DNA of 64,000 bases, from positions 1,144 through 65,143 of the forward strand of contig DJVR01000045.1 of assembly GCA_002441285.1 (NCBI GenBank), written 5' to 3'. Of this stretch, positions 5,058 to 57,976 are shown piece by piece. The stretch is from Candidatus Atribacteria bacterium UBA6251. GTDB lineage: Bacteria > Atribacterota > Phoenicimicrobiia > Phoenicimicrobiales > Phoenicimicrobiaceae. Positions within the stretch are counted from its first letter, which is position 1. Each line of letters opens with the position of its first letter. The translations under genes and the position numbers were made by a program. The notes under the pieces are model-generated. The model made no database searches and was not told where the DNA came from. It was given only the letters and a program-made list of their open reading frames with translations.

Positions 5058-5977
5058 GGGGTCAAGTCTTGAAATATCACTTTTTCTCTCCCTCCTCGAT
5101 TCTTTTAATCACTTTGCTCACTGTTGTATAATGCACACCAATATATTCTGCTATTTCTTTTAAGGTATAACCATACCGTAGGCAAGCCTTATACATTGCT
5201 TGGTTTTTTGTCTTCTTGTCTTTGTATTTTAAAATTTCATTTAAGGGCGGTCTGGTTACATAACGCTGCTTTCTGGATATCTCCTTTAAATTTTCTTTAC
5301 CTCTTATTAAGTGTTTTATCTCATCAATAAAATTCTCTTGACCAAGAAACAATTGCCCCTTTATGGCCTTTAAAGGTGATTCTGCTTTTATCCCGGAGAG
5401 TACGAAGGCTTGATATTGTCTAGAGGCTGCTTTTCGCTCTTTGTCAAATTGAGAAAGTATCCAATCTGTGGTTAAACAGGGAATCCCTTTATGGTTGATA
5501 GTTGCCTGATAACTACTCCATCTCCAGTCTCTTGGGTCTTTTACTATTTTTGCCCTTACCGGGTTCAAGACCACATAGCGACAGAGTTCCAGTAAATAGT
5601 TATCTTTATCCACCAGAATCGCTTTGTATCTGCCTTGAAAAAGATGGCCAACTCTTTTATGTCTTTTATTGAATCGTTGGGTATACAGACCATTTAATTG
5701 TCTCATCCCTTTGGATAAGTTACCATAAGGGGTTTCAATAAGCAGATGATAATGGTTGTTCATCAGACAATAGGCATGTAATATAAAGTGATATCTTTTT
5801 ATCACAGAACATAAGACTCTGAGAAAATCAGCAAAGTCCTTCTCGTCAAGAAAGATCGCCTGCCTGGCATTTCCCCTGGAGGAGATGTGATAGAGGGCTC
5901 CATTAAATTCTATCCGTAATGGTCTGGTCATGTTGTCAATATAGCATATACTTTTCTATATTTCAAGACCTGACCCC
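5058..5977. mobile_element. RAYT/IS200-like unit bracketed by a 19-bp inverted repeat
   Basis: GGGGTCAAGTCTTGAAATA (5058-5076) and TATTTCAAGACCTGACCCC (5959-5977) are reverse complements apart from one mismatch. They immediately flank the transposase ORF. Confidence 0.6.
5077..5931 (-). CDS. IS200-like Y1 (HUH) transposase / REP-associated tyrosine transposase with C-terminal HTH
   Basis: 284 aa with the HUH motif NHYHLLI, the downstream Tyr region LCRYVVLNPVRA, and a C-terminal HTH (LKEIAEYIGVHYTTVSKVIKR). Confidence 0.75.
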   Translation of the reverse strand: MTRPLRIEFNGALYHISSRGNARQAIFLDEKDFADFLRVLCSVIKRYHFILHAYCLMNNHYHLLIETPYGNLSKGMRQLNGLYTQRFNKRHKRVGHLFQGRYKAILVDKDNYLLELCRYVVLNPVRAKIVKDPRDWRWSSYQATINHKGIPCLTTDWILSQFDKERKAASRQYQAFVLSGIKAESPLKAIKGQLFLGQENFIDEIKHLIRGKENLKEISRKQRYVTRPPLNEILKYKDKKTKNQAMYKACLRYGYTLKEIAEYIGVHYTTVSKVIKRIEEGEKK

Positions 5978-27961: not shown

Positions 27962-28047
27962 GCCGAAGTGGCGGAATCGGTAGACGCGCTACGTTCAGGG
28001 CGTAGTAGGTGTATGCCTGTGGGGGTTCAAATCCCCCCTTCGGCACC
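27962..28047 (+). tRNA. tRNA-Leu (anticodon CAG)
   Basis: Acceptor GCCGAAG/CTTCGGC; anticodon stem-loop CTACG-TTCAGGG-CGTAG; long variable arm; T-arm GGGGGTTCAAATCCCCC. Confidence 0.9.
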
Positions 28048-34700: not shown

Positions 34701-34976
34701 GGAATATTAATCCAGCTGAGAAGGCAGTTCACCAAACAAAAAGAGGTTATGGCTTTTCTCCTTCTGGAAGATAAGGCAGGTCTATTTGAAGTAATTGTTT
34801 TCCCCTTAATTTATCAGAAATACTCCTCTCTTTTTTATCCGGAAATCCCTCTTTTGATCGAGGGGATGGTAAATAAAAAGGATGGTGATTACAAAATAAT
34901 TGCCCGCAAGATAACTAATATTAATTTGTATCTTGGAAAAGAAAAAGTAAAGATAATAAAAGATATAAACAATTAA
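31785..34976 (+). CDS. dnaE2: DNA polymerase III alpha subunit, probable error-prone DnaE2 type
   Basis: 1063 aa with an N-terminal PHP domain (HLHVHSQYSMQDG) and a Pol III alpha core. It is short for a replicative DnaE, lies behind an SOS box, and is followed by a Y-family polymerase gene. Confidence 0.75.
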   Translation: MNMVHLHVHSQYSMQDGLSSIEELIRKALSFKMSALALTDHDGLYGAIPFYKQARKVGIKPIIGCELRVKNELASGKIYHLILLAKDQKGYQNLCQLITGAHLSHPDSIPALEKDILPQHSQGIIALSGCSRGEVNQLLRAENNKEAEKTADYYRQIFGPGNFYLELSFHGLPQEREINHRLIELGKKLNLPLVATNNIHYLEKNQASIQRILNKIANLGTRERFYHPRLESEEYYFKSPAEMNQIFSHLPQALKNSREIAEKCNLSLELGKIHLPTYPLPSPYSSAHDYLQELCRKGLKKYYPSPPPEVKNRLEYELKIINQMGFAGYFLIVRDIVHFAKQHNIPVGPGKGSAAGSLVSYLLNITEVDPIKYQLFFERFLNPERIDLPDIDIDFGQVGRDKVISYIFKRFGHNRVTHVGTITTYAARSAIRDTGRALGFLPQEIDKLTRLMPIFTFPGIIKASLEQIPELQKLPQNKEPLKSLFSFAQAIEGKPRHLSVHSSSVIISDQPLSTIIPLEVSNRGEIVSQYEKETIKDLGLLKIDLLGSRALAVIKKTLQKLKEKNIYLNLKNIPLDDKSTFSILQKGQTLGVFQVESSGMASLLKKLSPAHLEDLIAALSLYRPGPLNSGMTELYLKRKQQKEKVVYLHPQLESILKDTYGVILYQEQVMQVVSTFAGLSLGEADLFRRAISSRSPVEMEKQRNNFLKKAIQQGNSKKEAENIFNLISKFAHYGFNKAHSTSYALISFYTCYLKVHYPAYYFASLLSYGMGYYSTDRYIQEARRFGVKILLPDINKSEDTFTVEEGAIRVGLSQVKGMGAKHLESILSLREKYQGFASLYDFCCKINGSRITQSLIENLIKVGAFDFTAYPRAVLLTLLPLTLKEIKKRGKEGMQRQIYKREEIPSVELSISGSIPVYLFSKFRQMNLEKEVLDLYISDHPLSKYNGKLPSSPLTSSNQIKNTSAGQSILIAGILIQLRRQFTKQKEVMAFLLLEDKAGLFEVIVFPLIYQKYSSLFYPEIPLLIEGMVNKKDGDYKIIARKITNINLYLGKEKVKIIKDINN

Positions 34977-34997
34977 CCAGAAAGGGTCTAAAATAAA

Positions 34998-36209
34998 ATG
35001 ATGAGTGATAATCATCGTCTACCTATAATTCATCTGGATCTGGATGCATTCTTTGCTTCCGTAGAGCAAAGAGATAATCCGATTCATCAAGGAAAACCTC
35101 TAATCGTAGGTGGAATTAGTGATGGGGGTCGGGGCAACTTACAACGCGGGGTAGTCTGTGCTGCCTCTTATGAAGCCCGAAAATACGGTATCTATGCAGG
35201 CATGCCTATCTGGGAAGCACACCAGAAATGCCCGAAAGGAGTCTTTCTTCCTGCCCGACTAAATAAATATATCAAGGAATCCAGAAAATTCTTTCAGATC
35301 TGCAGTGATTATACTCCGCTAATCGAGCCTCTGGGTCTGGATGAGCTCTTTTTAGATATATCAGGTTGTGAAGCACTCTTTGGCTCGAGTGAAATTATTG
35401 CCAAAAAAATCAAAGAAAGAGTAAATCAGGAATTAGGACTTAAGGTTTCAGCGGGGATAGCTCAAAATAAACTTTTAGCCAAAATAGCCACTAATCTGGG
35501 AAAACCTGATGGCTTCTTTACCCTTTATCCTGAAGATGTCCCCAAGATTCTCTATCCTTTACCCTTATCTTCTCTCTGGGGTATAGGTAAGAAGACAGAA
35601 GAACGATTAAAAAAATCGGGTATCTATCTAATAGGTCAATTAGCTCAAATTCCTGAACCTGTTTTGGAAAATCTATTGGGGAAAAACGGAAAAAGACTAA
35701 AACTTCTTGCTCAGGGTCTGGATAACAGCTCGGTTACTATTCCCACTAGTAAAAAATCTATCAGTAAAGAAACGACTTTTAGTGCCAATATAACTGAAAG
35801 AAATATCTTAATCAAAGAACTACTAAAACTTTCTCAAGAAGTGGGTTATTATGCTCGCAAAGAAGGTTATCAAGGGAGAACTGTTACCTTAAAATTAAGA
35901 TTTCATAATTTTACTACTCTAAACAAATCGATCACCCTGGAGAATCCTACCCATATTGATGAAAACATCTTTAAAATAGCCCTAAAACTTCTTGATAAAA
36001 TAAAAATTAAAAAAGGAGGAGTAAGATTGCTGGGTATTAAGCTTTCTAATTTAACCTGTTCCAACCAATTAATACAACTAAATTTACTGAATAATAAAGA
36101 GAATAAATGGGTCCAGCTTACCTATACCCTGGATCGGCTTAGAGAAAAATATGGATTTACAGCTATAACCAGGGCAACTCTCTTAGAACAAGAAAAAATA
36201 GAGGATTAA
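34998..36209 (+). CDS. dinB: Y-family DNA polymerase IV
   Basis: 403 aa. IHLDLDAFFASVEQRDNP and GLDELFLDISG retain the catalytic D/D-E residues. It starts 21 nt after dnaE2. Confidence 0.85.
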   Translation: MMSDNHRLPIIHLDLDAFFASVEQRDNPIHQGKPLIVGGISDGGRGNLQRGVVCAASYEARKYGIYAGMPIWEAHQKCPKGVFLPARLNKYIKESRKFFQICSDYTPLIEPLGLDELFLDISGCEALFGSSEIIAKKIKERVNQELGLKVSAGIAQNKLLAKIATNLGKPDGFFTLYPEDVPKILYPLPLSSLWGIGKKTEERLKKSGIYLIGQLAQIPEPVLENLLGKNGKRLKLLAQGLDNSSVTIPTSKKSISKETTFSANITERNILIKELLKLSQEVGYYARKEGYQGRTVTLKLRFHNFTTLNKSITLENPTHIDENIFKIALKLLDKIKIKKGGVRLLGIKLSNLTCSNQLIQLNLLNNKENKWVQLTYTLDRLREKYGFTAITRATLLEQEKIED

Positions 36210-36418
36210 GAATTTTTATGGTACAAGAAAACTATAATAATATAAAGATATAAATCCTTTTTAATTCAAGTTTTTGTGGCTTAATCAATTCTATCAAGTA
36301 TCTATGGCCTGTTGATTATTAAATATAAATTTCTTTTGCCAATAATATTTAGGTAATACCATTCTTAACTTGCATTTAGAACCTTGAAAAACTGTTGATA
36401 TTACAATATATTTAGAGT

Positions 36419-36880
36419 ATGAAAATCTGCCCTCACTAAGGCAGTAAAAAATGGTGGCATCTTGCAACCGGTCAAATCAGGTATAGTAGCTGTGGCCTGA
36501 CCAGAAAAATGTCTAAAAATGTCTGGAAAAAGACTCGCATTTCACCTTACTGGGAAGGCAGGTTGGTGGATTATTTCTGTCTTGGTGTATCGGCTTATCG
36601 TCTGAGATTTCAAGTACCTTACAGCCAATTGACCCTCCAGAGATGTTTTAGAATGTTTAGAAAAACTATTTAGCAGGATACCATCAAAGACTTGGAACCT
36701 CTTTCTGGAGAGATCAAAATGGATGAAACCATGTTCGGTGGCAGAAGACCTGGAAAACGTGGCTGGGAAGCAACCGGTAAATAGATCATCTTTGGTAGCT
36801 ATCAGAGAAAGGGGAAAGTCTTTACTTTTCTTATCTCATTACGGGCCAAAGAGACCCTGCGACCCTTAAAAAAGTGATTT
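36419..36880 (+). pseudogene. IS1595-family (ISXO2-like) transposase remnant
   Basis: The reading MKICPH*GSKK... has a stop inside the zinc ribbon. It continues ...GEIKMDETMFGGRRPGKRGWEATGK*IIFGSYQRKGKV, with in-frame stops and truncation. Confidence 0.65.
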
Positions 36881-36965
36881 CAAATAACGGTTTGCGGATA
36901 CAAGAAGTTGCGTGATGAGCAATTTGGGGCAATCTTTGATTTCCTTTTTATCCGCTGTTAGATGA
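36880..36965. repeat. attC-like structured repeat, copy C
   Basis: TCAAATAAC-GGTTT-GCGGATA ... TATCCGC-T-GTTAGATGA. This gives an outer box (7/9 complementary), an asymmetric bubble and a perfect 7-bp inner box. It shares the ...CCGCTGTTA... end with copies A and B and sits just 3' of the ygjP stop. Confidence 0.5.
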
Positions 36966-37028
36966 TCCAAAGGGCAAGGTTGTAAAGCAAACGCAGAGTG
37001 CCAGAGCCCACCTAAATTGATTTTCATG

Positions 37029-37739
37029 TTATAACCTTAACAAATAGTTGTTCTTCTTCAGCCAGTCATTATATTTTTCATAGTCAGGGAGCAACATTTT
37101 AACCTTATTCCAGAATGCTTTCGTATGATTTCTCTCTTCAAGATGAACAAGTTCATGGACAATAACATAATCTATTACGGGCAAAGGAGCCATAATAAGT
37201 CTCCATGAAAAATTCAAATTTCCATTAATAGAAGAAGATCCCCATCTTTTTTGTGCACCTGTAATATTTATCTTATTGAATTTAAAACCTTTTTTATTTG
37301 CATAAATTTTAATTCTTTCTGATATTTTTTCGTAAGCCATCTTTTTATACCATTCAACAAATAAATCTCTTGCCTTCGGTAAGGTATCTTTTGAAAGATA
37401 AAATCTATTTTCAAATTTCAATGGTACTTCCATATCATCCACAATTTCTAATTTGTAGTATCGTCCAAGATAGAGAAAACCTTCACCGCTTATAAATTCC
37501 TTGGGAACAAATTTTGGGTCTCTTAAGGCTATTTCCATTTTCTTTTGTTTAATCCAATCTTTGTGTTTAGATACAACTCTCATAATGGTTTCATTGCTAA
37601 CATCAAAAGGCGCTTTTACAATTAGTGTGGCATCATCTGTTATCTGTAAGGCTATACTTCTCCTTTTTGTTCTTATGATTTCTTTTATTTCTATATCTCC
37701 TACATTCATAGTCCTATCTCCTATATATATGCCCGGCAA
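37029..37739 (-). CDS. YgjP-like M48/DUF45 zinc metallopeptidase (type I R-M associated)
   Basis: 236 aa with an HELVHL motif. It overlaps the 3' end of hsdR by 26 nt. Confidence 0.75.
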   Translation of the reverse strand: MPGIYIGDRTMNVGDIEIKEIIRTKRRSIALQITDDATLIVKAPFDVSNETIMRVVSKHKDWIKQKKMEIALRDPKFVPKEFISGEGFLYLGRYYKLEIVDDMEVPLKFENRFYLSKDTLPKARDLFVEWYKKMAYEKISERIKIYANKKGFKFNKINITGAQKRWGSSSINGNLNFSWRLIMAPLPVIDYVIVHELVHLEERNHTKAFWNKVKMLLPDYEKYNDWLKKNNYLLRL

Positions 37740-40700
37740 GTTCCATCAATCTCTGGGCAATAACATTTCTTTTGTCAAAAATATTTGAATAGACATAAGG
37801 TGCCTGTTCTTCTCTTACAGATAGTATTTCTCCTTTACCCGTTTTATCAGTCTTTCCATATTTACCCAGCAGATGGGATATTATATATGCCTTGAGCTTC
37901 TTTTGTTTTGAATTGCTCTCCCAAAAGCCAACCACCTGAATCTCCCTACTTATAATTTCTATTATATCCCTTGTTAATTCAACCAAATGATTAATCTCCT
38001 TTTCACTCATCTCTTGGATAGAAATTTTTCCATATATTTCTTGCTTTAAAAGTCCAAAAAACGGCATCTCTTTCTTGGGGTCAAATCCAAAGATTTGTTC
38101 AGCTTCTCTTCCCTTTTTCAGTGATTCTCTGATAATTTCAAGTTCTTTTGCAAGAAGTTTCCAATTCTCTTGGTATGCTTCAAGAATCTGTTTCAGTCTA
38201 TCAGAAAATCGCTCGTAAAACTCAGGGTCTTCTTCGTAGTGTTTTCCTATATGCTCCACAATGGCACATTTGAGTTCTTCAGCTTTCGCTTTGTCTGACT
38301 TCTTCTTTAATTTTGTAATAAATTTATCTTCTAAAAGGGGGGTTGGTGGTATTTTAGGATTCACTCCTTTTGAAATAAGATACTCTTCAACAATCTCTCT
38401 TATCTTTTTACTTGCATCCCTTATGCTTAGTTTATCATCTCTGTATCTACTTCTCGCCGATTCCGCTATAAAACTAAGAACCTTTAAATCAGTAACATAT
38501 TTTAATACCTTTGGGTCGGGGAGCACAGTATCTATTGCTTTATTAAATTTTCTTACAAGCATGATGAATTCATTTCTTACTTCTTCATCAACCAAAAGGT
38601 CTATGCATTCGTCTATATTATCCCTCCAGTTTTCTATTTTATATCTCTTAAAGAAATCATTGATAAGATTGTGTTTGAATTTTAATTCATCAATACTTTT
38701 GGCTTTGTTTTTGACAACTTGTGTGATCTCCTCTATATCCTCATCAGCATAAATAGCAAGAGCCTCTCTTAAATGCTTTAAGACTCCAACATAATCTACG
38801 ACAAAACCACAAGATTTGTTTTTGTAAACTCTGTTCACCCTTGCAATTGCCTGCAACAGATTATGTTCTTTTATCACATTATCTAAATACATAACTTGTT
38901 CAATTGGTGCATCAAAACCAGTAATCAGCATGCTCTGAACAACCAAAATACCAACCTCACCTGAGATACCGCCATCGTCAGTTTTATCAAAAGGAAGCTT
39001 GAAACTTTTTATTATCCTTTCCTGCTTGTTTTCGTCTGTATAAGGGTGATATTCAGGTGGATCGTTTGCCAGTCCTGATATAACTACACCAACTTTTAAT
39101 TTCTCAAGTTGAGATACATCTATCCTGTTTGCGTTGTCTTTTCTTAACCCTTCTATTTTTTTCTTTAATGCATTTTCAAGGGCTTCTTTATATCTAATAG
39201 CCGCAAGTCTTGAGGCAGTTACTACCTGAGCCTTAAATCCATTTGGAAAAACATGAGTGACATAGTGCTCTATCATATCATTTGCCTTATCTCTTATCAC
39301 ATTTATATCTTCCAGATATGCACACCATGTGTATCTTCCTATAATTTTTGCTTTCTCTTCTGCCTCAACTATTGAGAAGACTTCTTCAAACTTTGCATTT
39401 GCTGCCTCTTCATCGGAAAGCTCTGCACCATGAACTCTTCCTTCATAAACAATGTCAACCGTTACACCATCTTCAACCGATTGTTTTATATTGTATTTGT
39501 CTATATACTCACCGAAGGTCATTTCAGTTTTCGCAATTGGTGTACCTGTGAACGCAACTTTTACAGCATTGGGCAGGGCTTTTTTCAAATTTGCCCCTAA
39601 TAGTTTATACTGAGTCCTATGGGCTTCATCAATCATAATAAGAATGTTGTGCGAGGTATTAAGCACAGGGAACTCTCTTTCAAGTTCTCTCTCCTGATAC
39701 TTGTGAATCATGCCCATAACCAGGTCTGGAGTATTTGTTCTCAAAAGTTCCTGAAGTTCTCTTATACTTCCTGCAAGATTTACAGTGAAACCTACACTTT
39801 TTGATGTTTCATTTAATTGCTTCTGCAAGTCTTTTCTATCTGTTACAAAAACCACCTTGAAGTTGCTGAGTTCAGGGTTGTGGTAGAGTTCCCTCACAGC
39901 ATACATCATTGTTAAAGATTTTCCGGAGCCCTGAGTATGCCAGATAATCCCCCCTTTTTCTTCTGGAGTGCTTCCTTCTTTTATCTTCTTTACCATCTTC
40001 TTAACAGCCCTGAACTGCTGGTATCTTGGTACAACTTTGATAACACCAGCCTTGGGGTCTTCTTTAAAGATTGTAAAGTTGTGAAGTATATCAAGAAGAT
40101 TCTCCTTTGTTAATACTCCCTGCGTTAATACCTGCTGGCTTGTTATGTTTTTATCTGGAGTTATATCCGAGAGTTTATAAGGATAAGGGTCTTTCCACTC
40201 AACAAAATGCTCATATTCTGTGGTTATAGTGCCATATTTTGCCACCTGGTTTGAAGTAGCAATCATAAAGAAGTTATACCAGAAGAGTTTTTCATCCCCT
40301 TCCTTTACCCCTCTTCTATTGGAATACCTCATAAGCTGAGTAATCGCTTCTCCAATGGGGTCTGCAATGGCTGGAGATTTACATTCCACAGCCACTAATG
40401 GCAAGCCATTTACGAATAAAACAACGTCTGGAACTATATGTTTCTCCGTTCCTGAAACATTTACTTTAAACTGAGATATGGCAACAAAGGAGTTATTTTC
40501 AGGATTTCTGAAGTCTATAAATCTAACCGTTGGACTTTTCTCTCCTGTCTTACGGTTTTCTGAGACAGAAGTATTTTCAAGAAGTAAATCATGAATCTCA
40601 TGGTTTGCCTCTAAAAGAGAGTTTGCTTGAGGTGTTGTTACTCTTCGGACAACCTCATTTATCTGGTCATCTTCAATCCATGGATTTATCTTTTTGATTG

Positions 40701-40917
40701 ATTGTCTTAAAACATTTTCAAGAATCACTTCTCTAAAACTTTCACGGAATTTTATGCTTTCGCCAAAAATAGGCTCTTCTTTACTATCAAAACCTTCAAT
40801 CTCTTTTACATCTTCAGTGTCTGCTTTATTCTGCCTGTAAATTTTCCAGCCAAGTTTTTGAAGATGGGCAAGAAAGGGATTTTCAGCGTAATGTTCTTCA
40901 TCAAGCAGTGTGAACAT
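37714..40917 (-). CDS. hsdR: type I restriction enzyme R subunit
   Basis: 1067 aa with HsdR N-terminal nuclease features (VVLFVNGLPLVAVECK), SF2 motifs (WHTQGSGKSLTM, MIDEAHRTQ) and a C-terminal helical domain. Confidence 0.9.
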   Translation of the reverse strand: MFTLLDEEHYAENPFLAHLQKLGWKIYRQNKADTEDVKEIEGFDSKEEPIFGESIKFRESFREVILENVLRQSIKKINPWIEDDQINEVVRRVTTPQANSLLEANHEIHDLLLENTSVSENRKTGEKSPTVRFIDFRNPENNSFVAISQFKVNVSGTEKHIVPDVVLFVNGLPLVAVECKSPAIADPIGEAITQLMRYSNRRGVKEGDEKLFWYNFFMIATSNQVAKYGTITTEYEHFVEWKDPYPYKLSDITPDKNITSQQVLTQGVLTKENLLDILHNFTIFKEDPKAGVIKVVPRYQQFRAVKKMVKKIKEGSTPEEKGGIIWHTQGSGKSLTMMYAVRELYHNPELSNFKVVFVTDRKDLQKQLNETSKSVGFTVNLAGSIRELQELLRTNTPDLVMGMIHKYQERELEREFPVLNTSHNILIMIDEAHRTQYKLLGANLKKALPNAVKVAFTGTPIAKTEMTFGEYIDKYNIKQSVEDGVTVDIVYEGRVHGAELSDEEAANAKFEEVFSIVEAEEKAKIIGRYTWCAYLEDINVIRDKANDMIEHYVTHVFPNGFKAQVVTASRLAAIRYKEALENALKKKIEGLRKDNANRIDVSQLEKLKVGVVISGLANDPPEYHPYTDENKQERIIKSFKLPFDKTDDGGISGEVGILVVQSMLITGFDAPIEQVMYLDNVIKEHNLLQAIARVNRVYKNKSCGFVVDYVGVLKHLREALAIYADEDIEEITQVVKNKAKSIDELKFKHNLINDFFKRYKIENWRDNIDECIDLLVDEEVRNEFIMLVRKFNKAIDTVLPDPKVLKYVTDLKVLSFIAESARSRYRDDKLSIRDASKKIREIVEEYLISKGVNPKIPPTPLLEDKFITKLKKKSDKAKAEELKCAIVEHIGKHYEEDPEFYERFSDRLKQILEAYQENWKLLAKELEIIRESLKKGREAEQIFGFDPKKEMPFFGLLKQEIYGKISIQEMSEKEINHLVELTRDIIEIISREIQVVGFWESNSKQKKLKAYIISHLLGKYGKTDKTGKGEILSVREEQAPYVYSNIFDKRNVIAQRLMELAGHIYRR

Positions 40918-42256
40918 TTTCTTCTACCTCGTTTATTAAATGATTAACTCTAACTTTGCCAGTAAGCAAATCCTCCATAAGCCCTTGCTTTAATCTCTCA
41001 AGTTTTTCCTTGTATTTTTGTTCTTTTTCTATGGTTTCGTCAATTTGCGAGAGAATTTCAGCAATGAGTTGTTGTTCGGGGAGGGAGGGGAGAAGTATTA
41101 ATAAATATTTTAATTTTGAAGCATTGAATCCTTCTTGAGCACTTCCAGATAAGTTCGTAAAGATTTGTGTCCAATAATAATAGGAATTGAAAAAATATCC
41201 TAAAAATTGCGGATTAACAATATTATTATTTGTTCTAATTCGTATAAGATAAGATGCAAAGATGGAATTTGGCGGATTTTTAATTATATAACTTTTGCCT
41301 GTTGTGGCTCCCGTTCTTGAAAACACTATATCACCATCTTCTAATTTGTATTTCACAATTAACTTTTCATTTATTTTACAGAAAGGGACTAAATCCCAAT
41401 TAACATTATTATCTTGTATATCAGTAATACGTAAAAATTTTGGTCCTAACTCTTTATTTATTGCGGATGAAGTATATCCGTATTGGATAGAATTTACTAT
41501 ATTCTTTCCCAATCTCACAACTCCCCACTCCTCCGGTATTCTTCCAAGTGGTGAATCTTTGAATTTGTGTGTTTTTTCGCTCCTTATGTTCCAGTTTTCA
41601 TCTACGCCCTTGGTCATTAAATCCTGCATCAAGCCCTGTTTTATGCGTTTATATTTTTCTATGATTTTGTCTGTCTTTTCTATAGCATTGTCAACGGTCT
41701 CAAGTATTTCGGCAATTTTGCGCTGTTCGGGGAGGGGAGGATAATTTAACTCAAAATCTAATATATCCATATCATTAACGCTTGGATATGTAGTACCTGT
41801 CTCTCTCTTTCCCAAATGATCTAAAAATACCTTCCTTGATAGAGAATAAAATAAGAAGTTATTGTTCTGTGAATTTAATACCAATAGCGCAGGACTAACA
41901 TAAAGAACCTCTTCTTTAATTTTAGAAATTGCCCCACGCGTTGGTCTAACTTTTGATATTACAATATTTCCTGTTTTAGCCTTCAAGCAATGCTCCGGTG
42001 CAGTTTTTTCTTTTATAGTATATTTTTTGGAACAAATATCTATATCTCCAATTTCTAAATAAGGATAAGATTTCTTTTTAGAAATACTTTTAATAATCTC
42101 ACAAACCTCCCCCAACCTTACCCTTCTCCACCCTTCAGGCAGTTTTTCCATCTCATTAACTTTTGCCATTGAAATATCACTAATTAAATTTTTGTGTGAT
42201 GAGTCTTTGAGCCTTTGCGTATTTTCGCTCCTTATCTGTGCGTTTTCATCATTCAT
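40901..42256 (-). CDS. hsdS: type I R-M specificity subunit
   Basis: 451 aa with two target-recognition halves, each followed by the conserved LPEQ(R/Q)xIAEIL helix. It overlaps hsdR by 17 nt. Confidence 0.9.
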   Translation of the reverse strand: MNDENAQIRSENTQRLKDSSHKNLISDISMAKVNEMEKLPEGWRRVRLGEVCEIIKSISKKKSYPYLEIGDIDICSKKYTIKEKTAPEHCLKAKTGNIVISKVRPTRGAISKIKEEVLYVSPALLVLNSQNNNFLFYSLSRKVFLDHLGKRETGTTYPSVNDMDILDFELNYPPLPEQRKIAEILETVDNAIEKTDKIIEKYKRIKQGLMQDLMTKGVDENWNIRSEKTHKFKDSPLGRIPEEWGVVRLGKNIVNSIQYGYTSSAINKELGPKFLRITDIQDNNVNWDLVPFCKINEKLIVKYKLEDGDIVFSRTGATTGKSYIIKNPPNSIFASYLIRIRTNNNIVNPQFLGYFFNSYYYWTQIFTNLSGSAQEGFNASKLKYLLILLPSLPEQQLIAEILSQIDETIEKEQKYKEKLERLKQGLMEDLLTGKVRVNHLINEVEENVHTA

Positions 42257-42298
42257 AATTCACTCTTCATCATTCCTTTGCATAACATGACATAAATT

Positions 42299-42347
42299 GT
42301 CCCCTTTATGTCCCCTTTATGTCCCCTTTGTCCCTTTTGTGTCCCTT
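42299..42347. repeat. degenerate ~11-bp tandem repeat (GTCCCCTTTAT-type, about 5 units)
   Basis: GTCCC restarts at 42299, 42310, 42321, 42330 and 42341. The tract spans the 3' end of the AlbA_2 gene and lies 43-91 nt upstream of the hsdS start. Confidence 0.8.
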
Positions 42348-43688
42348 AAGAACATAAAAAGTGCCTTTTCCTGTTGTTCCTTGTTTTATCAATAACCCTA
42401 TATTAACTAACTCCGTTAAATCTCTGCTTGCTGTTTTTTTAGTGGTTACATTTATTTCCTGATACTCCCTATTCGTTATCTTCCCTTTCTCCTTCACATA
42501 CATAACCGCCTTAATCTGCCTCTCATTAAGCCCCAGTTTTTGTAGATACTCCTCCGTATAGACATTTTTCAAAAATACCAGTGTAAATTCTGTATGGTTT
42601 GCCTCAATTTTAAATTCTGGAAGTCCCGCCTCTTTTAAGGTCTTCATCATCCTCTCAATCCCCGAGCCAACGCTTTCAACAACACCCGCAAGATAGAATA
42701 TATTGAAAATCGTTGGATTTCTCGGAATGGATGTATGGGAAGTCAGTAGTTTTTCAGTAACCCAGTCTTCAGGCAATCCTCCAACATTGTAAAACAATAT
42801 CCTGTCGTCATAGACCTTTATCTGCACGTTGATTGGCCTCAAATAATCCCTGTGGAGCAGGGCATTGGCGATAGCTTCCCTGATTGCTTCCAGTGGATAG
42901 TCCCAGATGTCCTCTCTCTCAAAACCCTTAATCTCATATCGTACATTTATGAAGTTTTTAATCGCTTCCTCTGTTTCTCTAAATTGATTGAATAAATTTC
43001 CCTCTATCCACCTGTCCCCGATAATCGTAATATCATCCTTTAATCGGACAACGCGAACCCTTGCATAATCAAAGTATTTTTGTGGATTCTTTCCGAATAA
43101 AAGCATGCCTGCGTTGTTGATTTTGCCGTTTTCCGTAAGCCCTAACTTCTCAAAAACTTCTTCTATCGGCTCATCAACATTAAAGACAGCCAATCGTCCA
43201 TTTGCTCTGGCAGTTCGCAAAAAATTTCTGACACTATGCACATCAATCTCATCAATCTTAAAATCTCTCTCTGAAAGGCGTTCCCAACGTATGTCTCTTT
43301 GAAAAAACCTCTTAAGTTCTTCAAAGTTCATTTGTCTTGTTGTATTTCCTACTCGTTTATAATACCTACCCTCAAAAGAAATAGGGATTTCAGATTTTAT
43401 TACATCAATTTTTAAAATAGATTTTCCATCTACTTCAAAAATCTCAAAATTGGGAGCAATACCAAGTTTATTTACAACACCATTGATGATATTCTGATAA
43501 GTTTTATCATCAATTTCTATTCCATTTATCTCACCCTTATCACCCACTCCTACAATAATTACACCACCATAAGAGTTTGCAAATGCAGATATAGTTTTAA
43601 AAATACTTTCGTTGAAAACTTCTTTAAACTCTAATTTATTGCTTTCTCCACTTTTACCCAATTTAAGAAAATCAGTTTTCTTTATCAT
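42306..43688 (-). CDS. AlbA_2 (Schlafen-like) DNA-binding plus ATPase-like plus wHTH protein (COG2865-type)
   Basis: 460 aa beginning ESNKLEFKEVFNESIFKTISAFANSYGGVIIVGV (AlbA_2), with a C-terminal wHTH (ITNREYQEINVTTKKTASRDLTELV). This is a common insert in type I R-M operons. Confidence 0.7.
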   Translation of the reverse strand: MIKKTDFLKLGKSGESNKLEFKEVFNESIFKTISAFANSYGGVIIVGVGDKGEINGIEIDDKTYQNIINGVVNKLGIAPNFEIFEVDGKSILKIDVIKSEIPISFEGRYYKRVGNTTRQMNFEELKRFFQRDIRWERLSERDFKIDEIDVHSVRNFLRTARANGRLAVFNVDEPIEEVFEKLGLTENGKINNAGMLLFGKNPQKYFDYARVRVVRLKDDITIIGDRWIEGNLFNQFRETEEAIKNFINVRYEIKGFEREDIWDYPLEAIREAIANALLHRDYLRPINVQIKVYDDRILFYNVGGLPEDWVTEKLLTSHTSIPRNPTIFNIFYLAGVVESVGSGIERMMKTLKEAGLPEFKIEANHTEFTLVFLKNVYTEEYLQKLGLNERQIKAVMYVKEKGKITNREYQEINVTTKKTASRDLTELVNIGLLIKQGTTGKGTFYVLKGHKRDKGDIKGT

Positions 43689-43724
43689 ATCACCACCAAA
43701 AATTCACCATTCATAAGTCATAAT

Positions 43725-46208
43725 TCATAATTCATAATTATTATTGTATCCCAATTTCATCAAAAACTCATCCAGCTTTTTGACTTCCTCATCTCTCTCT
43801 CGTTTTAGTTCACTTAATGAAATCTTATACTTATCCCAGAGATTTTCGAAAATCTTTATAACTTCCTTTTTCTCAGCATTCAAATATTTGTTTAGTTGCT
43901 CATCAATGAGTTGATAAAACTTTTTAAGCAGCAATTCCTTTGACTCCTGCTCAGTCAATGTTTCTTTTTTCTCTATTATTTTGTCTTCTAATTCTTTCTG
44001 TTTATTGCCAATTTCTTTCTTGAATTTTTTCAGTTCTTTCTCTTTACTTTCGATCCTAAAAATCAAATCTTGCCATTTTTTAGCTTCCTTTAAGGCTGAG
44101 TCGCTTTGGCTTGTTCTTAAATCCCTGACCACGTCCTCCAAGTATTTCTTTACCTTGTTTGCTGTTTTATTACCCAGTTCTTCCTCATCCCAATCTTCTA
44201 CTTCCTCAAGAATTTCATTTAATTCACCTTCAACCTCTGCATCCTTGCTTTCCTGTTCTTCAATACTCTCTATTTCTTTGTTAAAAAATTCTTTTTTTAT
44301 CATTTCATCATCTATGAGGTTTTTACTCCAACCAACAGAAACTATACTTTTAAAATCATATATTAGCTCCTCCCACCAGTTTGCGAATATGCCAGATATT
44401 TTAAATTCATCAAGCACGTCAAACGGTAAGAGTTCATCCTTTAACTTTTTCACAGCATCATTTCTAAAAATCCATAGATTGTTGTTACCGTAAAATCTTT
44501 CAACCTCAGGCTTTACCTCATTCCACCAATCCAATAATTTTTGTTTATGCTCTAAAACTTTAGCTTTTAGCTTCTCATCATCTTCAATAATCTCCTTAAT
44601 CTGGTTCTTATCACTAACATTTTCTTTAAACTCAAGATATTTCTCATACTTTTCTTTCAAAAAAATTTCTGGCAAGATTCCAAATTTTAACAATTGTTTT
44701 TCGTAAAGTTTAACTTCTCTTTTTGGCACACCACCAACAATATGCGCAGAAACATCTTCAATCTCGGGTTCTGGTGAATTATCCACATACCTGCGAATGT
44801 TCAGGTTAAAATCATTTTCTTTAATTTCCTTAATATCAACACATCTTGAATATTTTGGTATCTCTAACTTATTCTCAAACACAGTGGTGATTTTCTCAAT
44901 ATCTTCAGGTCTCAAATAGTTTTGATTTCGTCCCTCACCGTATTCCCTATCCGCATTGATGAATAAAATCTTGTTTTTCAAGTTTTCCGGTTTTTTATTC
45001 TTTTTGATAACAATCACACAGGCGGGAATACCTACATTATAAAAGAGTTTGGCGGGTAAACCGATAATAGCCTCAATAATGTCATCCTTAACCATTCCTT
45101 CTCTTATGACTTTCTCCTGACCGCCCCTGAATAAAACACCGTGAGGCATAACGGTTGCCATAATGCCACCATTTTTAAGGCTGGCAACCATATGTTGCAA
45201 AAACATTAAATCGGCTTTCTTACCTGTTTCTGGGGTAAAACCATACTTGAATCTTGCAGGAAACTGCATGTTAGTGCGCGTATAATTCTGTGAAAATGGA
45301 GGATTGGCTAAAACCCTATCGAATTGCTTGACATAACCATTTTCTAAAAACATGGGATTGGTTAAAGTATCTTCATTTTCTATATGTGCGTCTGGAATAT
45401 TATGAAGAATCATATTCATTTTGCATATTGACCAGGTCAGACCATTAAGTTCTTGTCCGTAAAGGGCTATATTTTGGGGATTTTGTCCAAGTTCTTCTAT
45501 ATATTGCTGCGCTTCAATAAGAAAACCACCAGAACCGACTGTAGGGTCATAAATTGTCATGTCTTTCTGTGGTTTTATAATTCTGACCATCAATTTCTTT
45601 ACAAAAGCAGGAGTATAAAACTCGCCACCTTTTTTCCCTGCGGAGTCAGCAAATTGTTTAAGTAGATATTCATAGGCAGCGCCAAGCAAGTCAGGAAACT
45701 CAAAGTCTTCATTTGTGAGCCTATATTTATTAAAATGGTGAATCAGGTCAATGAGTTGTTGGTCTTTAAGACGGGTCTTACCTTTTAAAGCATTAAAGTC
45801 AATGTGCTTTAAGACACCATCAAGTTCGGGGTTTTGTTCTTCTACTGCTGCAAGTGCCTTATTTAATTGATTACCGACATCTTCCTTTAAATTAAGAATA
45901 TTTTCCCATCTTGCTCTATGAGGAACAAAGAATGTATCGCCGTATGAATTGGGGTCTTCCAAAAATTCATTAAGCCGATCATTTGAAAGGTGTCTAAATC
46001 TTGCTTTTAATTCCTGCCTTCTCAGTTCAAAAACATCTGAAACACGCTTTAAAAAAAGCATCCCAAAGATGTATTCCTTATATTCAGAAGCATCCATCTT
46101 TCCTCTAAGAATGTCCGCGGCTTTAAACAGATGTGTCTCAAGCTGTCTTAAGGTTATCTTTCTGTTATTCATACTATAATTTCCTCCCCCTATGCAGTTA
46201 TCCTCCAA
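43725..46208 (-). CDS. hsdM: type I R-M DNA methyltransferase M subunit with long C-terminal E/K-rich extension
   Basis: 827-aa ORF whose likely start is the [12 protein letters not shown] Met at 46172. Motif I is [14 protein letters not shown] and motif IV is LANPPFSQ. The final ~300 aa are coiled-coil-like. Confidence 0.9.
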
Positions 46209-46240
46209 TTCTAAAATCTTTTGACAGCGGGCTTAGGCAT

Positions 46241-46354
46241 TTCCTATAACGTCCCGTGCATATATGTCGTTTTCACCATAGCGACAGCGTAGGTGAAAAT
46301 GTGGCAAAGCTCAAGCCCGTACTCAAGAGCAGCATATATGCGCTGTTATAGGAA
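46241..46354. repeat. attC-like structured repeat, copy A
   Basis: TTCCTATAAC-GTCCCGT-GCATATATG ... CATATATGC-GCT-GTTATAGGAA. This gives a perfect 10-bp outer box and a perfect 9-bp inner box around an asymmetric bubble (7 vs 3 nt), with an internal TTTTCACC/GGTGAAAA hairpin. Confidence 0.55.
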
Positions 46355-46594
46355 GTGCGGGCATGATTTAGCAAATTTCGGCACGGCTGCCGTATTATTT
46401 TTGCTCATTCTTTTCTGTAATATCATACTGATGATAGCAAAAATAAAAAATAATAGGCCAAACCATACATGTAAATGCACTATTAATTGGTTTTTTGGGC
46501 TTGTGCCTAAAATATAATTGATAAAAAGTGGAATTGTTGTCACTAAAGTTACAAGAAATGCTAAAATTCTACCAATATCAATGATCTTTGGCAT
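46346..46594 (-). CDS. small two-TM membrane protein (82 aa)
   Basis: ATG at 46594 behind a GGAGGT RBS. The product is MPKIIDIGRILAFLVTLVTTIPLF...VWFGLLFFIFAIISMIL. Its 3' end runs into repeat A. Confidence 0.4.
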   Translation of the reverse strand: MPKIIDIGRILAFLVTLVTTIPLFINYILGTSPKNQLIVHLHVWFGLLFFIFAIISMILQKRMSKNNTAAVPKFAKSCPHFL

Positions 46595-46617
46595 TTCTTT
46601 ACCTCCAATTATTAAAA

Positions 46618-46836
46618 TCAACTTACAAAAATTGTTTTTTTATCTGGTTTAGGTGCTCTGATAACCATAAAAACCAGATCCTTTTTACTTTCATTATACC
46701 AACAATTAAGGATGCCCTTTGGGCTTTCAACCAAAGTATTTTCTTTTACATTTAATTTTTCACCTCCTATTTGTACTATAACCTTCTCCTTTCAAAACAT
46801 AAAACGCAACATCAACAGGAGGTAATATGTTTTTTT
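46618..46836 (-). pseudogene. cupin-fold gene remnant (frameshifted, N-terminally truncated)
   Basis: One frame reads ...DVAFYVLKGEG. The adjacent frame reads KVIVQIGGEKLNVKENTLVESPKGILNCWYNESKKDLVFMVIRAPKP*. Removing one base would join them into a typical cupin beta-barrel sequence. Confidence 0.35.
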
Positions 46837-47055
46837 AGTAGCTGGCCGAACAAGAGCTTAATTATTGTAATCATTACATTTTTAGTATCATATAAATTTC
46901 TTGCATCAACATTATGTGCCGTTTCCATAATTGGAGTTTCTTATAGTTTTTAGTTTGAATCATCCTATAATTCCTCCTTTTAAATTATCTTCTCCTGCCA
47001 AAATATAACAAATTGTTTCTAGCCAATCAAGGATGTCGGCATATTTCTATATCTT

Positions 47056-47149
47056 TGGCCTGCATTTCCGATAATGTCTTCAGCATATACGAAGTTTCGG
47101 CATAGCCGAAATTTGGGTGAGGGCGTACGCCCGAACCGTATGTCCGCTG
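47056..47149. repeat. attC-like structured repeat, copy B (more decayed)
   Basis: TTCCGATAAT-GTCTTCA-GCATATACG ... CGTATGTCC-GCT-GTTATGTACA. It aligns with copy A, has internal hairpins TTTCGGC/GCCGAAA and GGGCG/CGCCC, and lies directly 3' of the 587-aa gene. Confidence 0.45.
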
Positions 47150-47168
47150 TTATGTACAGTGCTCATTA

Positions 47169-48932
47169 TCATTTTGTATCTCCCTCTTCCTTCACTAAAG
47201 CTAAACACAACAAGGTATGAAACACTCTATCCGCAGTGGCCTGACTGAAAGTTTCTATAAGACTCATACCATGACACACATTATTGCGAAGATTCCATCC
47301 TCTTGGATCAGTAAATAAAACTCTTAAATAAAGGCACAAATATTCTCCGAACACTTTTATTATATACTCATCCCTTAACAACTCGTCCAATGTTCTATAG
47401 TTAAATCCCCCAGAACGTGAAGACTTTAAAACAGATAATCCGATAGTCTCTGCTAAATTTCTAACTAAAGCTTCAATCTGTGGGATCAAAATATGTAGAG
47501 CAATCTCAAATTGACTATTCAAATAAGCTTCAATACCTATTTCAAACAATTTTTTTCTTCTTTCATCAAAAATTGGACATTCATATAGATAATTAACTAT
47601 ATCCTCAGTATTTATATTAAACTTTTTAATAAATTTATTTATTGTTTCTCTTAGGAAAAATGATCCAAATTGCATGTTTTGTGAGATTTGAAGACCTATG
47701 TGTCCATCAATGTCTTCTTCTAATGAGCCAACGGCAGCAATCTCACGTCCCTCTTCATCAATGATTTTACGAGTAAAGAGGAAAGAAATAGAGGCTTTCT
47801 GAGACAGGTCTTTTAATTGTTTTGTAACTTCATCTTTTTTAGGAACGTAATAGATAGCAATTCTTTGACATGCCGTTTTAAAATCTCCATCAATTAAACT
47901 GTTAATAAACTTCTCAATTTCATTCTTTGGAATTTCCTTTGATACCTCAAGTCTTTTCATTTCTGATGGAATATTTTTTGATATTCCTCTTATTTTAATC
48001 AGAAGTTTATTTGCTTCTCTCTTTAATCCATACTGTAAATAAATGTGGTATAATTCTTTTAACCAAGTAACTCCTGCTAAAGGTGATGCTTGCTTTGCTA
48101 CCCTTTGGACCATGTCACCATATTCGAGTAATATATTTTTTGCCTTAGAAGATTCTTTATTTTTATAATAATCCGCTAACAACATTGCTGCTTTTTTGGT
48201 GGCCCAATGATTATTCCCTTTTAATAATCTTTCAAATCTATCCTCTAAATCTTTGATAATTTTTTGCTCTTCCTCTTGCGTTATCTGAATTTTTTTACTC
48301 TTTAGAAACAGTTCATAAGAAAACCCCCATAGACCTGGTTTATCATCTTCTGCTATTTTTTCTTCATAACTGATAATATTATTTTTTAACCTATCTATCC
48401 TCTCTTTATCGTTAATGGTTAATGCAAGAGATAAAGCGCGCTTCAACTTTTCTATCACATATACATCATGTTTATACAAATCTTTTTCTGCAATTTCTAT
48501 AATACTATCTACAAAGATTTTGGCAATTGAATAATGCGGTTTTCGTCTGTTAATTTTTTCTGAAAAATCCCAAACCAGATTAGAATATCTTTGCCTAAGA
48601 ATGGGATGTTTAGACTCTTTGGCCCTTTTTCCCCAATAAGAAAGAATTTCTGGAGTTACTTTTTGGATGCTTGGATATTCAACCATCTTTCCTTCTTTGT
48701 TAGGTAGGACAAACATAGGGCCAAAGTAAGTACCCCATCCTGATTTATCATTTGGGTAATTTTCTGTAAAATCAAAAGCCATTTGTTCCCAGAGCAGAAT
48801 TTCTGGTGGGCTTTGTTCAAATTTTTCTTTTATAAAGCTTTTAATTCTTTCAGATATTTCATGCTCCGATATTTGTTCTGATAGCGACTCCAGTTGACTC
48901 AGGAACTCTCTTATTTCCTTATTTATACTCAT
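47169..48932 (-). CDS. large hypothetical protein with C-terminal HEPN-like Rx4H motif (DUF4209-like)
   Basis: 587 aa. The C-terminal region FTDPRGWNLRNNVCHG contains R-x4-H. The protein is alpha-helical throughout with no other recognisable motif. Confidence 0.5.
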   Translation of the reverse strand: MSINKEIREFLSQLESLSEQISEHEISERIKSFIKEKFEQSPPEILLWEQMAFDFTENYPNDKSGWGTYFGPMFVLPNKEGKMVEYPSIQKVTPEILSYWGKRAKESKHPILRQRYSNLVWDFSEKINRRKPHYSIAKIFVDSIIEIAEKDLYKHDVYVIEKLKRALSLALTINDKERIDRLKNNIISYEEKIAEDDKPGLWGFSYELFLKSKKIQITQEEEQKIIKDLEDRFERLLKGNNHWATKKAAMLLADYYKNKESSKAKNILLEYGDMVQRVAKQASPLAGVTWLKELYHIYLQYGLKREANKLLIKIRGISKNIPSEMKRLEVSKEIPKNEIEKFINSLIDGDFKTACQRIAIYYVPKKDEVTKQLKDLSQKASISFLFTRKIIDEEGREIAAVGSLEEDIDGHIGLQISQNMQFGSFFLRETINKFIKKFNINTEDIVNYLYECPIFDERRKKLFEIGIEAYLNSQFEIALHILIPQIEALVRNLAETIGLSVLKSSRSGGFNYRTLDELLRDEYIIKVFGEYLCLYLRVLFTDPRGWNLRNNVCHGMSLIETFSQATADRVFHTLLCLALVKEEGDTK

Positions 48933-48972
48933 TTTCGGCCATCCTTATTTATTACGGAGCATTGCACATAAC

Positions 48973-49314
48973 TTAAAATAACCGAACTATTTCGTTTATG
49001 CCTCCAAATTGGTATATTTTGCGAAATACTTCGTTTATACACCACTCTGGCGAAACCTCAAATTGTAACTCTTTGTTGTCATTTACTTCCAAAATCCAAA
49101 GAGCTTTTAATCCGTCCAATATCCCGCCCGCTACCGTGAGTATAGATTTCCGTTGTTTTTGAACTCTTATCTCTTGAATATACCGTAAATCTATACCACC
49201 TTCTAAAAAATAGGTAGCAAAACTATGACACAAAGTATGAACAGTAACATGTTTAGCAATACCTGCTTTTTGGCTGGCATTTTTCAAAATCTTCTCTACC
49301 GTTCTTGTTGTCAA
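48973..49314 (-). pseudogene. tyrosine recombinase (XerC/D / IntI-like) C-terminal remnant
   Basis: It reads ...KHVTVHTLCHSFATYFLEGGIDLRYIQE, where the box-II Arg is replaced by Cys. A short deletion and frameshift then removes the LLGH. The true continuation KSSKTTEIYTHGSGRDIGRIKSSLDFGSK* is in another frame and ends at 49079. The N-terminal two thirds are absent. Confidence 0.75.
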
Positions 49315-49343
49315 ATGGCTATTCTGCTTTGATAAGAGGAAAG

Positions 49344-57877: not shown

Positions 57878-57976
57878 GGGAGCGGATAGGTCCTGGTGGG
57901 CCTTGCGGACTTCAAATCCGTGGGCGGCAATTAATATTAATTGCCGCGGTGGGTTCGATTCCTACCCCTCCCGCCA
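57878..57976 (+). tRNA. selC: tRNA-Sec (anticodon UCA)
   Basis: 8-bp acceptor (one C.C mismatch); 6-bp D-stem AGGTCC/GGGCCT with a 4-nt loop; anticodon loop CTTCAAA; very long variable arm GCGGCAATTAA-TAT-TTAATTGCCGC; T-arm GGGTTCGATTCC; encoded CCA. It lies directly upstream of selA. Confidence 0.9.

Follow-up and report, generated by a model that had tools for sequence, protein, structure and literature searches.

Probable remnant of an integron-like gene-capture platform in a Caldatribacteriota genome

A 64,000-nucleotide stretch from Candidatus Atribacteria bacterium UBA6251, a Caldatribacteriota bacterium (contig DJVR01000045.1, positions 1,144 to 65,143; hereafter the window), carries a 12,982-bp island that a related genome lacks. 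We put at roughly 0.8 the probability that this island is what survives of a defunct, integron-like platform for gene capture, its three cassettes each ending in a folded site. On the minus strand the order is a recombinase pseudogene, an attI-like site, cassette 1 with site B, cassette 2 with site A, cassette 3 with site C and a transposase-like reading frame. The elements on which this reading is built are as follows (window positions).

36349..49330, no strand: strain-specific island, 12,982 bp, with an empty site in a related metagenome-assembled genome (MAG)
49079..49329, minus strand: C-terminal pseudogene of the recombinase (translations; NCBIfam NF040815 and TIGR02249, both about 1.7e-22)
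48957..49057, minus strand: attI-like site (nhmmer profile, E = 1.1e-9)
48971 to 47075: cassette 1, 1.9 kb, ending in site B
47064–47153, plus strand: cassette-end site B (covariance model 50.5 bits, left-end pattern; predicted junction 47074/47075)
47074 to 46250: cassette 2, 825 bp, ending in site A
46239–46349, plus strand: cassette-end site A (covariance model 55.3 bits; predicted junction 46249/46250)
46249 to 36888: cassette 3, 9,362 bp, a five-gene type I restriction–modification (R-M) system, ending in site C
36877–36961, plus strand: cassette-end site C (covariance model 81.1 bits, nearest to the family consensus; predicted junction 36887/36888)

A preliminary description of this DNA had picked out three homologous repeats, each 3′ of a minus-strand gene block, and had likened them to the attC sites that end integron cassettes. 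The left-end pattern ATTTCCNATAAYG-N6-GCATATA, with up to three mismatches allowed, matched exactly three places in the 64 kb where 0.04 were expected, which together with the covariance scores bears out that the repeats are real and homologous. A 109-member covariance model run with filters off found no family copy in the remaining 51 kb of the window; the best score after sites C, A and B was 16.6 bits, on the reverse strand of copy A. All three sites share one orientation, the plus strand being the folding (bottom) strand, and the GCTGTTA end of each adjoins the stop codon of a minus-strand gene. Sites A and B lie 0.8 kb apart and C lies 9.4 kb from A, so that all three fall within 10.3 kb. 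Copy A folds with perfect outer and inner stems (−24.2 kcal/mol, z = −5.7), as had been claimed for it; the coordinates of the repeats were refined, copy B having been placed about 8 nt too far to the left. The crossover triplet stands at the low-coordinate end of the repeats and reads AAC, or AAT in site B, a T being found at that position also in 6 of the 109 family copies. The G/TT junctions first proposed (36957/36958, 46345/46346 and 47139/47140) therefore had to be given up as lying at the wrong repeat end, and the mirrored positions that had been offered beside them are the junctions listed above.

The sites belong to a wider family, which was collected with an exact-pattern scan of species-representative genomes and the same kind of scan of metagenomes. 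Three further copies were found in the former (in a Bacteroides MAG, a Dehalococcoidia single-cell genome and an uncultured bacterium) and the pattern occurred on at least 120 metagenome contigs. The platform occurs in metagenomes of the subsurface and of sediments, and its hosts include Atribacterota, Dehalococcoidia, Desulfobacteraceae, Omnitrophica, Spirochaetota and Thermoplasmatota. The sites are about 74–112 nt long, and the most frequent form, of 82 nt, is ATTTCATATAACGTTTTGCGGATAAAAGAAGTTGCCGAAGGCAATTTGGGGAAATCTTTGATTTCCCTTTTATCCGCTGTTAT; since the search pattern prescribed ATAAC and GTTA, these are invariant over the 109 copies by construction. A structure drawn by hand was tested by pair counts on 109 distinct copies, and it superseded an RNAalifold run on the raw MAFFT alignment that had yielded three pairs only, with the centre misaligned. 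An outer R stem, ATAAC/GTTAT with extensions (ATTTCnnATAAC / GTTAnnnGAAnT), is followed by a 5-nt bulge (GNNNN) in the 5′ arm and by a single T in the 3′ arm, and then by an L stem of 11 bp (GCGGATAAAAG / CTTTTATCCGC) that is 94% paired and holds no bulged base; beyond the L stem, the centre forms two inner hairpins. Over the 109 copies 86% of cells were paired, and the covariation score was 0.174 compared with 0.082 after shuffling (0 of 500 shuffles reached 0.174) and 0.03–0.05 in slid controls, with compensatory changes in both inner hairpins and in four pairs of the L stem. The extrahelical bases that the folds were to be inspected for are missing from the L stem of the 109 copies. Flank-complementarity matrices gave no clear signal of a longer outer stem beyond ATTTC/GAAGT, and Rfam returned no match at the window repeats at gathering thresholds and none on eight consensus-copy loci at E ≤ 1.

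Further, more divergent copies in the fetched loci were found with the covariance model, and a sequence profile gave 223 copies in 129 loci. Orientation was uniform in all 61 loci with at least two copies, the median spacing between sites was 1,072 bp, and one locus (L068) held nine copies within 14 kb. In 59 intervals a single open reading frame (ORF) took up at least half of the length, and in 57 of them it was encoded opposite to the model strand; these two regularities uphold the earlier view of the repeats as cassette-end sites. The model strand contains 2.0 G:T pairs per site versus 1.0 on the other strand, it folds more stably in 103 of the 109 copies (mean 2.7 kcal/mol), and one hairpin loop of the site is GAA; relative to the cassette ORF, this strand is the antisense one. 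The bottom strand of attC, which is the one that recombines, is likewise antisense to the cassette gene, enriched in G:T pairs and often provided with a GAA loop (PMC5027507). Because the folding strand is antisense, G:T-rich and GAA-looped as in attC, minus-strand genes that are each followed by a site are the right frame in which to read the window.

The head of the array is marked by a second type of site. In ten recombinase loci and in the window, a conserved region of about 100 nt directly follows the recombinase stop codon, with palindromes of the type TATATACGAA-n4-6-TTCGGATATA and then ..ACGAG|TTAGGCGAAAT. A profile built from nine other loci, with the window excluded, matched a single place in the window, where a weaker reverse-strand match (E = 9e-4) overlaps because the site is palindromic. 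Here, two imperfect palindromes precede AAG|TTATGTGCAAT, and the predicted crossover lies between G 48972 and TT 48971–48970. A G|TTRRRY crossover motif is thus present adjacent to the recombinase gene, in a site that lies downstream of the gene and co-directional with it, unlike the arrangement of class 1. The profile also matched about 20 site-anchored contigs. In each of the 26 loci with both site types, the attI-like site was read in the cassette-sense direction and was followed downstream by one or more cassette sites, and in many of them a recombinase gene or remnant stood just upstream. The succession of recombinase or remnant, attI-like site and opposite-strand cassette sites was found in order in L020, L043, L050, L055, L028, L129, L131, L133, L134 and L136. 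An extended motif, G|TTRRRYGAAAT, is common to the attI-like site and the cassette sites, as is a CGGATA core read by eye.

The recombinase remnant heads the window array in the orientation of the cassettes, as the preliminary description had stated. Translations and tblastn confirmed that it is truncated and frameshifted and that the box-II Arg is changed to Cys (HTLCHSFAT): about 253 N-terminal codons are gone, there is one frameshift, and the fragment aligns to residues 254–315 of P0037, relatives being 355 amino acids (aa) long, and to positions 105–153 of the Pfam Phage_integrase model. The truncation point coincides with the island border. The fragment scores equally on NF040815 (‘XerA/integron integrase’) and TIGR02249 (‘integron integrase’), and no second recombinase copy was found within the 64-kb window. 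The array is frozen because its recombinase has lost about 250 codons, its reading frame and its catalytic Arg; it is a fossil unless another part of the genome encodes a trans-acting copy.

Full-length homologues of about 350 aa are very numerous, some of them in archaeal MAGs under the NCBI name ‘site-specific tyrosine recombinase/integron integrase’. Intact relatives pass NF040815 (244–250 bits, cut-off 220) and reach 218–233 bits on TIGR02249, 30–45 bits below its cut-off of 265, in a match split into two stretches. Residues 179–238 of VchIntIA (2a3v) have only 18 counterparts in these proteins, which align continuously with the XerA structures 4a8e and 5hxy and carry an extra, unannotated N-terminal domain of about 70 aa; the best-scoring solved structure is nonetheless 2a3v. 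No recombinase with the IntI insertion was found among about 140 loci. The link between enzyme and sites could be approached from both sides. On the site-anchored contigs L020 and L043, related recombinase genes lie upstream of the sites in cassette orientation. Among eight further homologue loci that were retrieved, six independent ones (L129, L131, L133, L134/L135, L136 and, weakly, L138) have a downstream family site on the other strand, with one to three genes between it and the recombinase gene. Counted without redundancy, the insertion-less recombinase and the attI-like site head arrays in about 21 loci, with invariant orientation.

Comparative evidence on where exchange takes place came from relatives of the window array, not from the window's own population. 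One cassette is common to L041 and L070 at 95% identity, and the homology stops exactly after ...CCTAAC. Beyond this point L041 runs into the body of another cassette site, and L070 into sequence that to the eye looks like an attI-like site in reverse complement; L070 was not among the matches of the attI profile. The break has the pattern that would be expected of attC × attC and attI × attC recombination at AA|C. According to the proposed model, the platform would consist of a tyrosine recombinase of about 350 aa, followed in the same orientation by the attI-like site of about 100 nt and by cassettes made of a gene or small operon plus a site. The strand antisense to the cassette gene would fold into the site, and the recombinase would join a folded cassette site to either the attI-like site or another cassette site by strand exchange at AA|C, which is G|TT on the coding strand, thereby inserting, excising and reordering cassettes as in integrons. 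Judged by anatomy and comparative junctions, exchange of a folded bottom strand at AA|C by this recombinase is the most likely mechanism.

Several observations weigh against this reading of the window. The IntI-specific insertion, which is held necessary for integron recombination, is absent from the intact relatives, and the window fragment starts past the corresponding region, its original state being deduced from those relatives. Two recombinase loci (L130 and L132) have a strong attI-like site with no detectable cassette site within the contig. All eight contigs that carry the window locus have the same gene order; there is therefore no sign of recent cassette movement there. The host genome was covered over 64 kb. 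Finally, the geometry of canonical attC sites, with 5–6 unpaired nucleotides per arm and 2–3 extrahelical bases on the L″ arm (PMC5027507), is not that of the sites described here, whose spacer measures 5 nt in one arm and a single nucleotide in the opposite one and whose L stem has no extrahelical base. What they have of attC is an imperfect palindrome within 57–141 nt, a place at the 3′ cassette end and a common orientation, the triplets being fixed by the search pattern.

Set beside classical integrons (IntI1/VchIntIA), the family has much in common with them: a tyrosine recombinase beside an attI-type site that ends in G|TTRRRY; co-oriented cassettes, mostly of one ORF, each ending in an imperfect palindrome with AAC/GTT triplets; a GAA-looped folding strand, antisense to the ORF and with the larger number of G:T pairs; the same cassette both at an attI-like sequence and after another cassette site; and a cargo of accessory and defence genes. 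The differences concern the enzyme and the sites. The recombinase lacks the IntI-specific insertion of about 40 aa, has the extra N-terminal domain and is transcribed towards the cassettes, with the attI-like site after its stop codon. The sites differ from classical attC in their 5-nt/1-nt spacer, their want of extrahelical bases, the conserved 11-bp L stem and a conserved branched centre, and the multi-gene cassettes of the family reach 9.4 kb. In the VchIntIA structure the IntI insertion contacts the extrahelical bases, and the joint absence of insertion and extrahelical bases would then be coherent. The integron-like interpretation of the preliminary description holds, while a classical integron is not what the window contains: the strict definition asks for an integrase with the IntI-specific additional domain of about 35 aa near patch III, and ‘integron’ is used here in a working sense only.

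Close published counterparts are archaeal integrons and the ‘reverse orientation’ integrons that characterize Spirochaetota: the archaeal putative attIs lie immediately downstream of intI, and habitats, hosts and a cargo of R-M and toxin–antitoxin genes are alike (PMC9668308). In contrast, their IntIs are reported to have the additional domain, and the nine archaeal attCs of Data S9 of Ghaly et al (2022) have canonical 5/6-nt spacers and extrahelical bases and contain none of the motifs of this family (PMC9668308). A surrogate attC covariance model made from seven of the Data S9 attCs, with the centre trimmed, missed the class 1 dfrA17/aadA5 controls, and its silence in the window is uninformative. 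No description of this combination of recombinase, attI-like site and cassette site was found in the literature searched, an absence that is no proof. We propose tentatively, at somewhat less than even odds, that the arrays represent a distinct, so far undescribed integron class of anaerobic Bacteria and Archaea, with an I2-less IntI/XerA-like recombinase and sites with a one-sided 5-nt bulge and no extrahelical bases. If so, single-strand cassette recombination would do without the IntI insertion, or the platform would be a sister or precursor lineage of classical integrons. The I2 helix has been viewed as the innovation that enabled single-strand recombination (PMC7790495, PMC4792948), and if the proposed mechanism is right, a natural I2-less enzyme, together with the sites that belong to it, allows this view to be put directly to the test. 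In surveys such as IntegronFinder and Nemergut (2008), an integrase counts only if it has the IntI-specific domain (PMC4889954, PMC2426708), and the attC model of IntegronFinder was derived from INTEGRALL attC sites. A platform without that domain and outside the site rules, present here on well over 100 contigs, would escape such filters.

The alternative that fares best, although we consider it improbable, sees in the repeats the attC sites of an ordinary integron remnant, or of a cluster of attC sites lacking an integrase (CALIN), on which a classical IntI carrying the additional domain acted in trans, the neighbouring recombinase being a bystander such as a Xer paralogue. The AAC/GTT triplets, the GTTRRRY-like R boxes, the bottom-strand bias and the single site per cassette all fit this explanation; CALINs are common, with cassettes that can be mobilized in trans (PMC9668308), and the recombinases miss the TIGR02249 cut-off by a mere 30–45 bits. 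A CALIN is defined by at least two attC sites within 4 kb and no functional integron integrase nearby, and whether the window qualifies hinges on accepting its sites as attC; its three sites share one orientation within 10.3 kb and it has no functional recombinase, but it keeps a recombinase pseudogene and an attI-like site, and its sites are non-canonical. Against a bystander role stand the lack of any IntI-insertion recombinase in the approximately 140 loci, the place of insertion-less recombinase and attI-like site at the head of the arrays, always in one orientation, in some 21 non-redundant loci, and the motifs that attI-like and cassette sites have in common (G|TTRRRYGAAAT and, by eye, CGGATA). 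The sites also lack the extrahelical bases that the IntI insertion contacts in the VchIntIA structure.

A second alternative, which we regard as very unlikely, holds that the sites are double-stranded and Xer/dif-like and that a Xer-type recombinase moves the units as dif modules. The recombinase does align end to end with XerA structures, its catalytic and core-binding domains matching 4a8e and 5hxy without a break, and passes the NF040815 cut-off; the palindromes of the attI-like site resemble paired arms of about 11 bp around a 4–6-bp spacer. Unlike XerA and XerC/D-dif, however, this recombinase heads variable cassette arrays, is accompanied by an attI-like site of its own and carries an extra domain at its N terminus. 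The cassette sites are 80–110 nt long, with strand-asymmetric G:T pairing and a one-sided bulge, two features that are meaningless in duplex DNA, and all are co-oriented, whereas pdif modules have short duplex sites of about 28 bp in alternating orientation.

Two further explanations carry still less weight. Selfish elements like repetitive extragenic palindromes (REP/REPIN) or miniature inverted-repeat transposable elements (MITE), piling up between genes without cassette capture, had been raised in the preliminary description; the repeats are palindromes that lie between genes and abound in metagenomes, and the window holds a Y1 transposase like those associated with REP (RAYT; 5077–5931), but the explanation is set aside by the absence of window copies outside the island with filters off, by mixed orientation in 0 of 61 multi-copy loci, by the 57:2 ORF rule, by cassette-like spacing, by the tie to recombinase and attI-like site and by a cassette-level breakpoint at AAC. 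A structured RNA (3′ untranslated region stabilizer, terminator or antisense RNA) would account for the conserved three-way junction, the covariation, the G:U-type pairs and the location at 3′ ends of genes, but the better-folding strand is antisense to the adjacent gene, there is neither a U-tract nor an Rfam family match, and the attI-like site, the recombinase linkage and the cassette breakpoints would be left unexplained.

We return to the window, read as a probable gene-capture remnant, and to what its cassettes contain. The reading frames of the island are as follows.

47169..48932, minus strand: cassette 1 gene, 587-aa DUF7380/DUF4209 protein (Pfam; PADLOC PDC-S39, 152 bits)
46346..46621, minus strand: cassette 2 ORF, 91 aa, membrane-like (ORF list; DUF4079 match sub-threshold in Pfam)
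43725..46208, minus strand: hsdM, first gene of cassette 3 (Pfam N6_Mtase and HsdM_N; PADLOC MTase_I, 1236 bits)
42306..43688, minus strand: AlbA_2/Schlafen and HATPase_c_4 protein inside the R-M operon (Pfam)
40901..42256, minus strand: hsdS (Pfam Methylase_S; PADLOC Specificity_I)
37714..40917, minus strand: hsdR (Pfam HSDR_N, SWI2_SNF2, ResIII; PADLOC REase_I)
37029..37739, minus strand: YgjP-like metallopeptidase, last gene of cassette 3 (Pfam PF01863, 188 bits)
36440..36875, plus strand: transposase-like reading frame, interrupted, between site C and the island border

The gene of cassette 1 had been called HEPN; the gene itself stands, with Pfam assigning it to DUF4209/DUF7380, and its PADLOC match to PDC-S39 makes it a candidate defence gene. 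Cassette 2 looks decayed, the 91-aa ORF being its sole content. For cassette 3, Pfam and PADLOC agreed with the identities proposed for ygjP, hsdR, hsdS, AlbA/SLFN and hsdM. Its genes are joined by overlaps or by gaps of 37–50 nt, and the covariance model with filters off found no trace of an internal site, for which there is also no room, in keeping with the suggestion that the five-gene type I R-M system is one cassette. The interval between sites A and C (9,361 bp) is the longest among the family intervals measured. Transcription in the window would probably be read-through from the upstream xanthine dehydrogenase operon. The frame at 36440–36875 had been taken for an IS1595 remnant. Its translation holds DETMFGGRRPGKRG and is broken by stop codons; a Pfam scan of it gave no match, and the name was dropped, transposase identity being unconfirmed.

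In related arrays, 119 distinct cassette proteins matched 112 Pfam families, the commonest being S-adenosylmethionine (SAM)-dependent methyltransferases, PEMT/ICMT, DNA methylases and AAA_21/AAA_15 ATPases. As in known integrons, the accessory genes carried are of many kinds, those for defence being clearly represented. In L131, whole type II R-M systems of 1.7–2.9 kb lie between consecutive sites, as MTase-BsaWI-MTase and MTase-MvaI/BcnI units, and with the 9.4-kb unit of the window such cassettes extend the idea of integrons as biobanks of defence genes to deep-biosphere phyla.

The island was delimited by comparison with a related Caldatribacteriota MAG (GCA_054682955.1; L139), which is 89–93% identical to the window on either flank. 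The extent 36349–49330 follows from this comparison, since homology breaks at 49331 and picks up again at 36348. In place of the island the MAG has 58 unrelated bp, and its xanthine dehydrogenase gene directly adjoins imuB/dnaE2-like genes. At the junction, homology between the two genomes runs 19 nt beyond the sole GTT, and a site-specific insertion of the island is unsupported. Taken by itself, the window result is modest, namely a frozen, strain-specific defence island.

Remnants comparable to that of the window recombinase were encountered repeatedly. All 31 closest homologues of the window fragment (P0001–P0031) are short (57–139 aa), and on some long contigs the short homologue immediately follows a core gene such as ruvB (L137 9880–10212, L138 2623–2955). 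Decayed C-terminal remnants of this recombinase thus seem common. A specific recombination site within the recombinase gene was considered and rejected, the truncation points of the window fragment and P0008 being different; independent decay together with contig ends is the likelier origin of the short homologues. A more distant insertion-less recombinase of about 272 aa, without the N-terminal domain, lies divergent to cassette sites in L011 (6137–6952) and L085 (5611–6519), and L061 likewise has a more distant recombinase near sites, differently oriented and without that domain. The L011/L085 enzyme may be an unrelated Xer or belong to another platform type.

Modules of recombinase and attI-like site also occur inside arrays (L131 8569–11146; L111 5307–5394, equivalent to L024 3091–3178). 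In L131 the intact recombinase gene has a cassette site 36 bp ahead of it, and one cassette further upstream come a second recombinase, in the form of a decayed remnant, and an attI-like site; in L111 the attI-like site is between cassette sites. The platform itself may insert like a cassette, or the arrays may be in tandem. In the archaeal loci L129 and L130 (10001–11200; proteasome and exosome neighbours), recombinase and attI-like site occupy the same chromosomal position after a DHDPS gene, and the downstream cargo is wholly different, a SnoaL cassette in the former versus a glycosyltransferase/radical-SAM cluster in the latter. In the Dehalococcoidia locus L007, an ORF at 563–1338, about 180 bp upstream of the cassette site, resembles an IS110-family transposase; IS1111-attC elements target attC sites in classical integrons. 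A contig with a cassette site, L013, contains a sub-threshold match to the glycine-GGAnGA riboswitch (151–335; 57 bits, gathering score 110).

The island adjoins an imuB-like (IMS family) gene and a dnaE2-like DNA polymerase III alpha gene at window positions 31785–36209. The corresponding genes of the related MAG are followed by lexA (L139 11238–17364), an SOS-mutagenesis-type cluster. Beside the island lie selA and the xanthine dehydrogenase operon. The RAYT-like ORF (284 aa, window 5077–5931, minus strand) has an IS200-like Y1 transposase domain and a C-terminal helix-turn-helix, with no copy of the cassette-site family near it. Elsewhere in the window are a cobalamin riboswitch (3609–3807, minus strand, 91 bits), an ordinary tRNA (27962–28045, plus strand) and a tRNA-Sec (57878–57972, plus strand, 72 bits).

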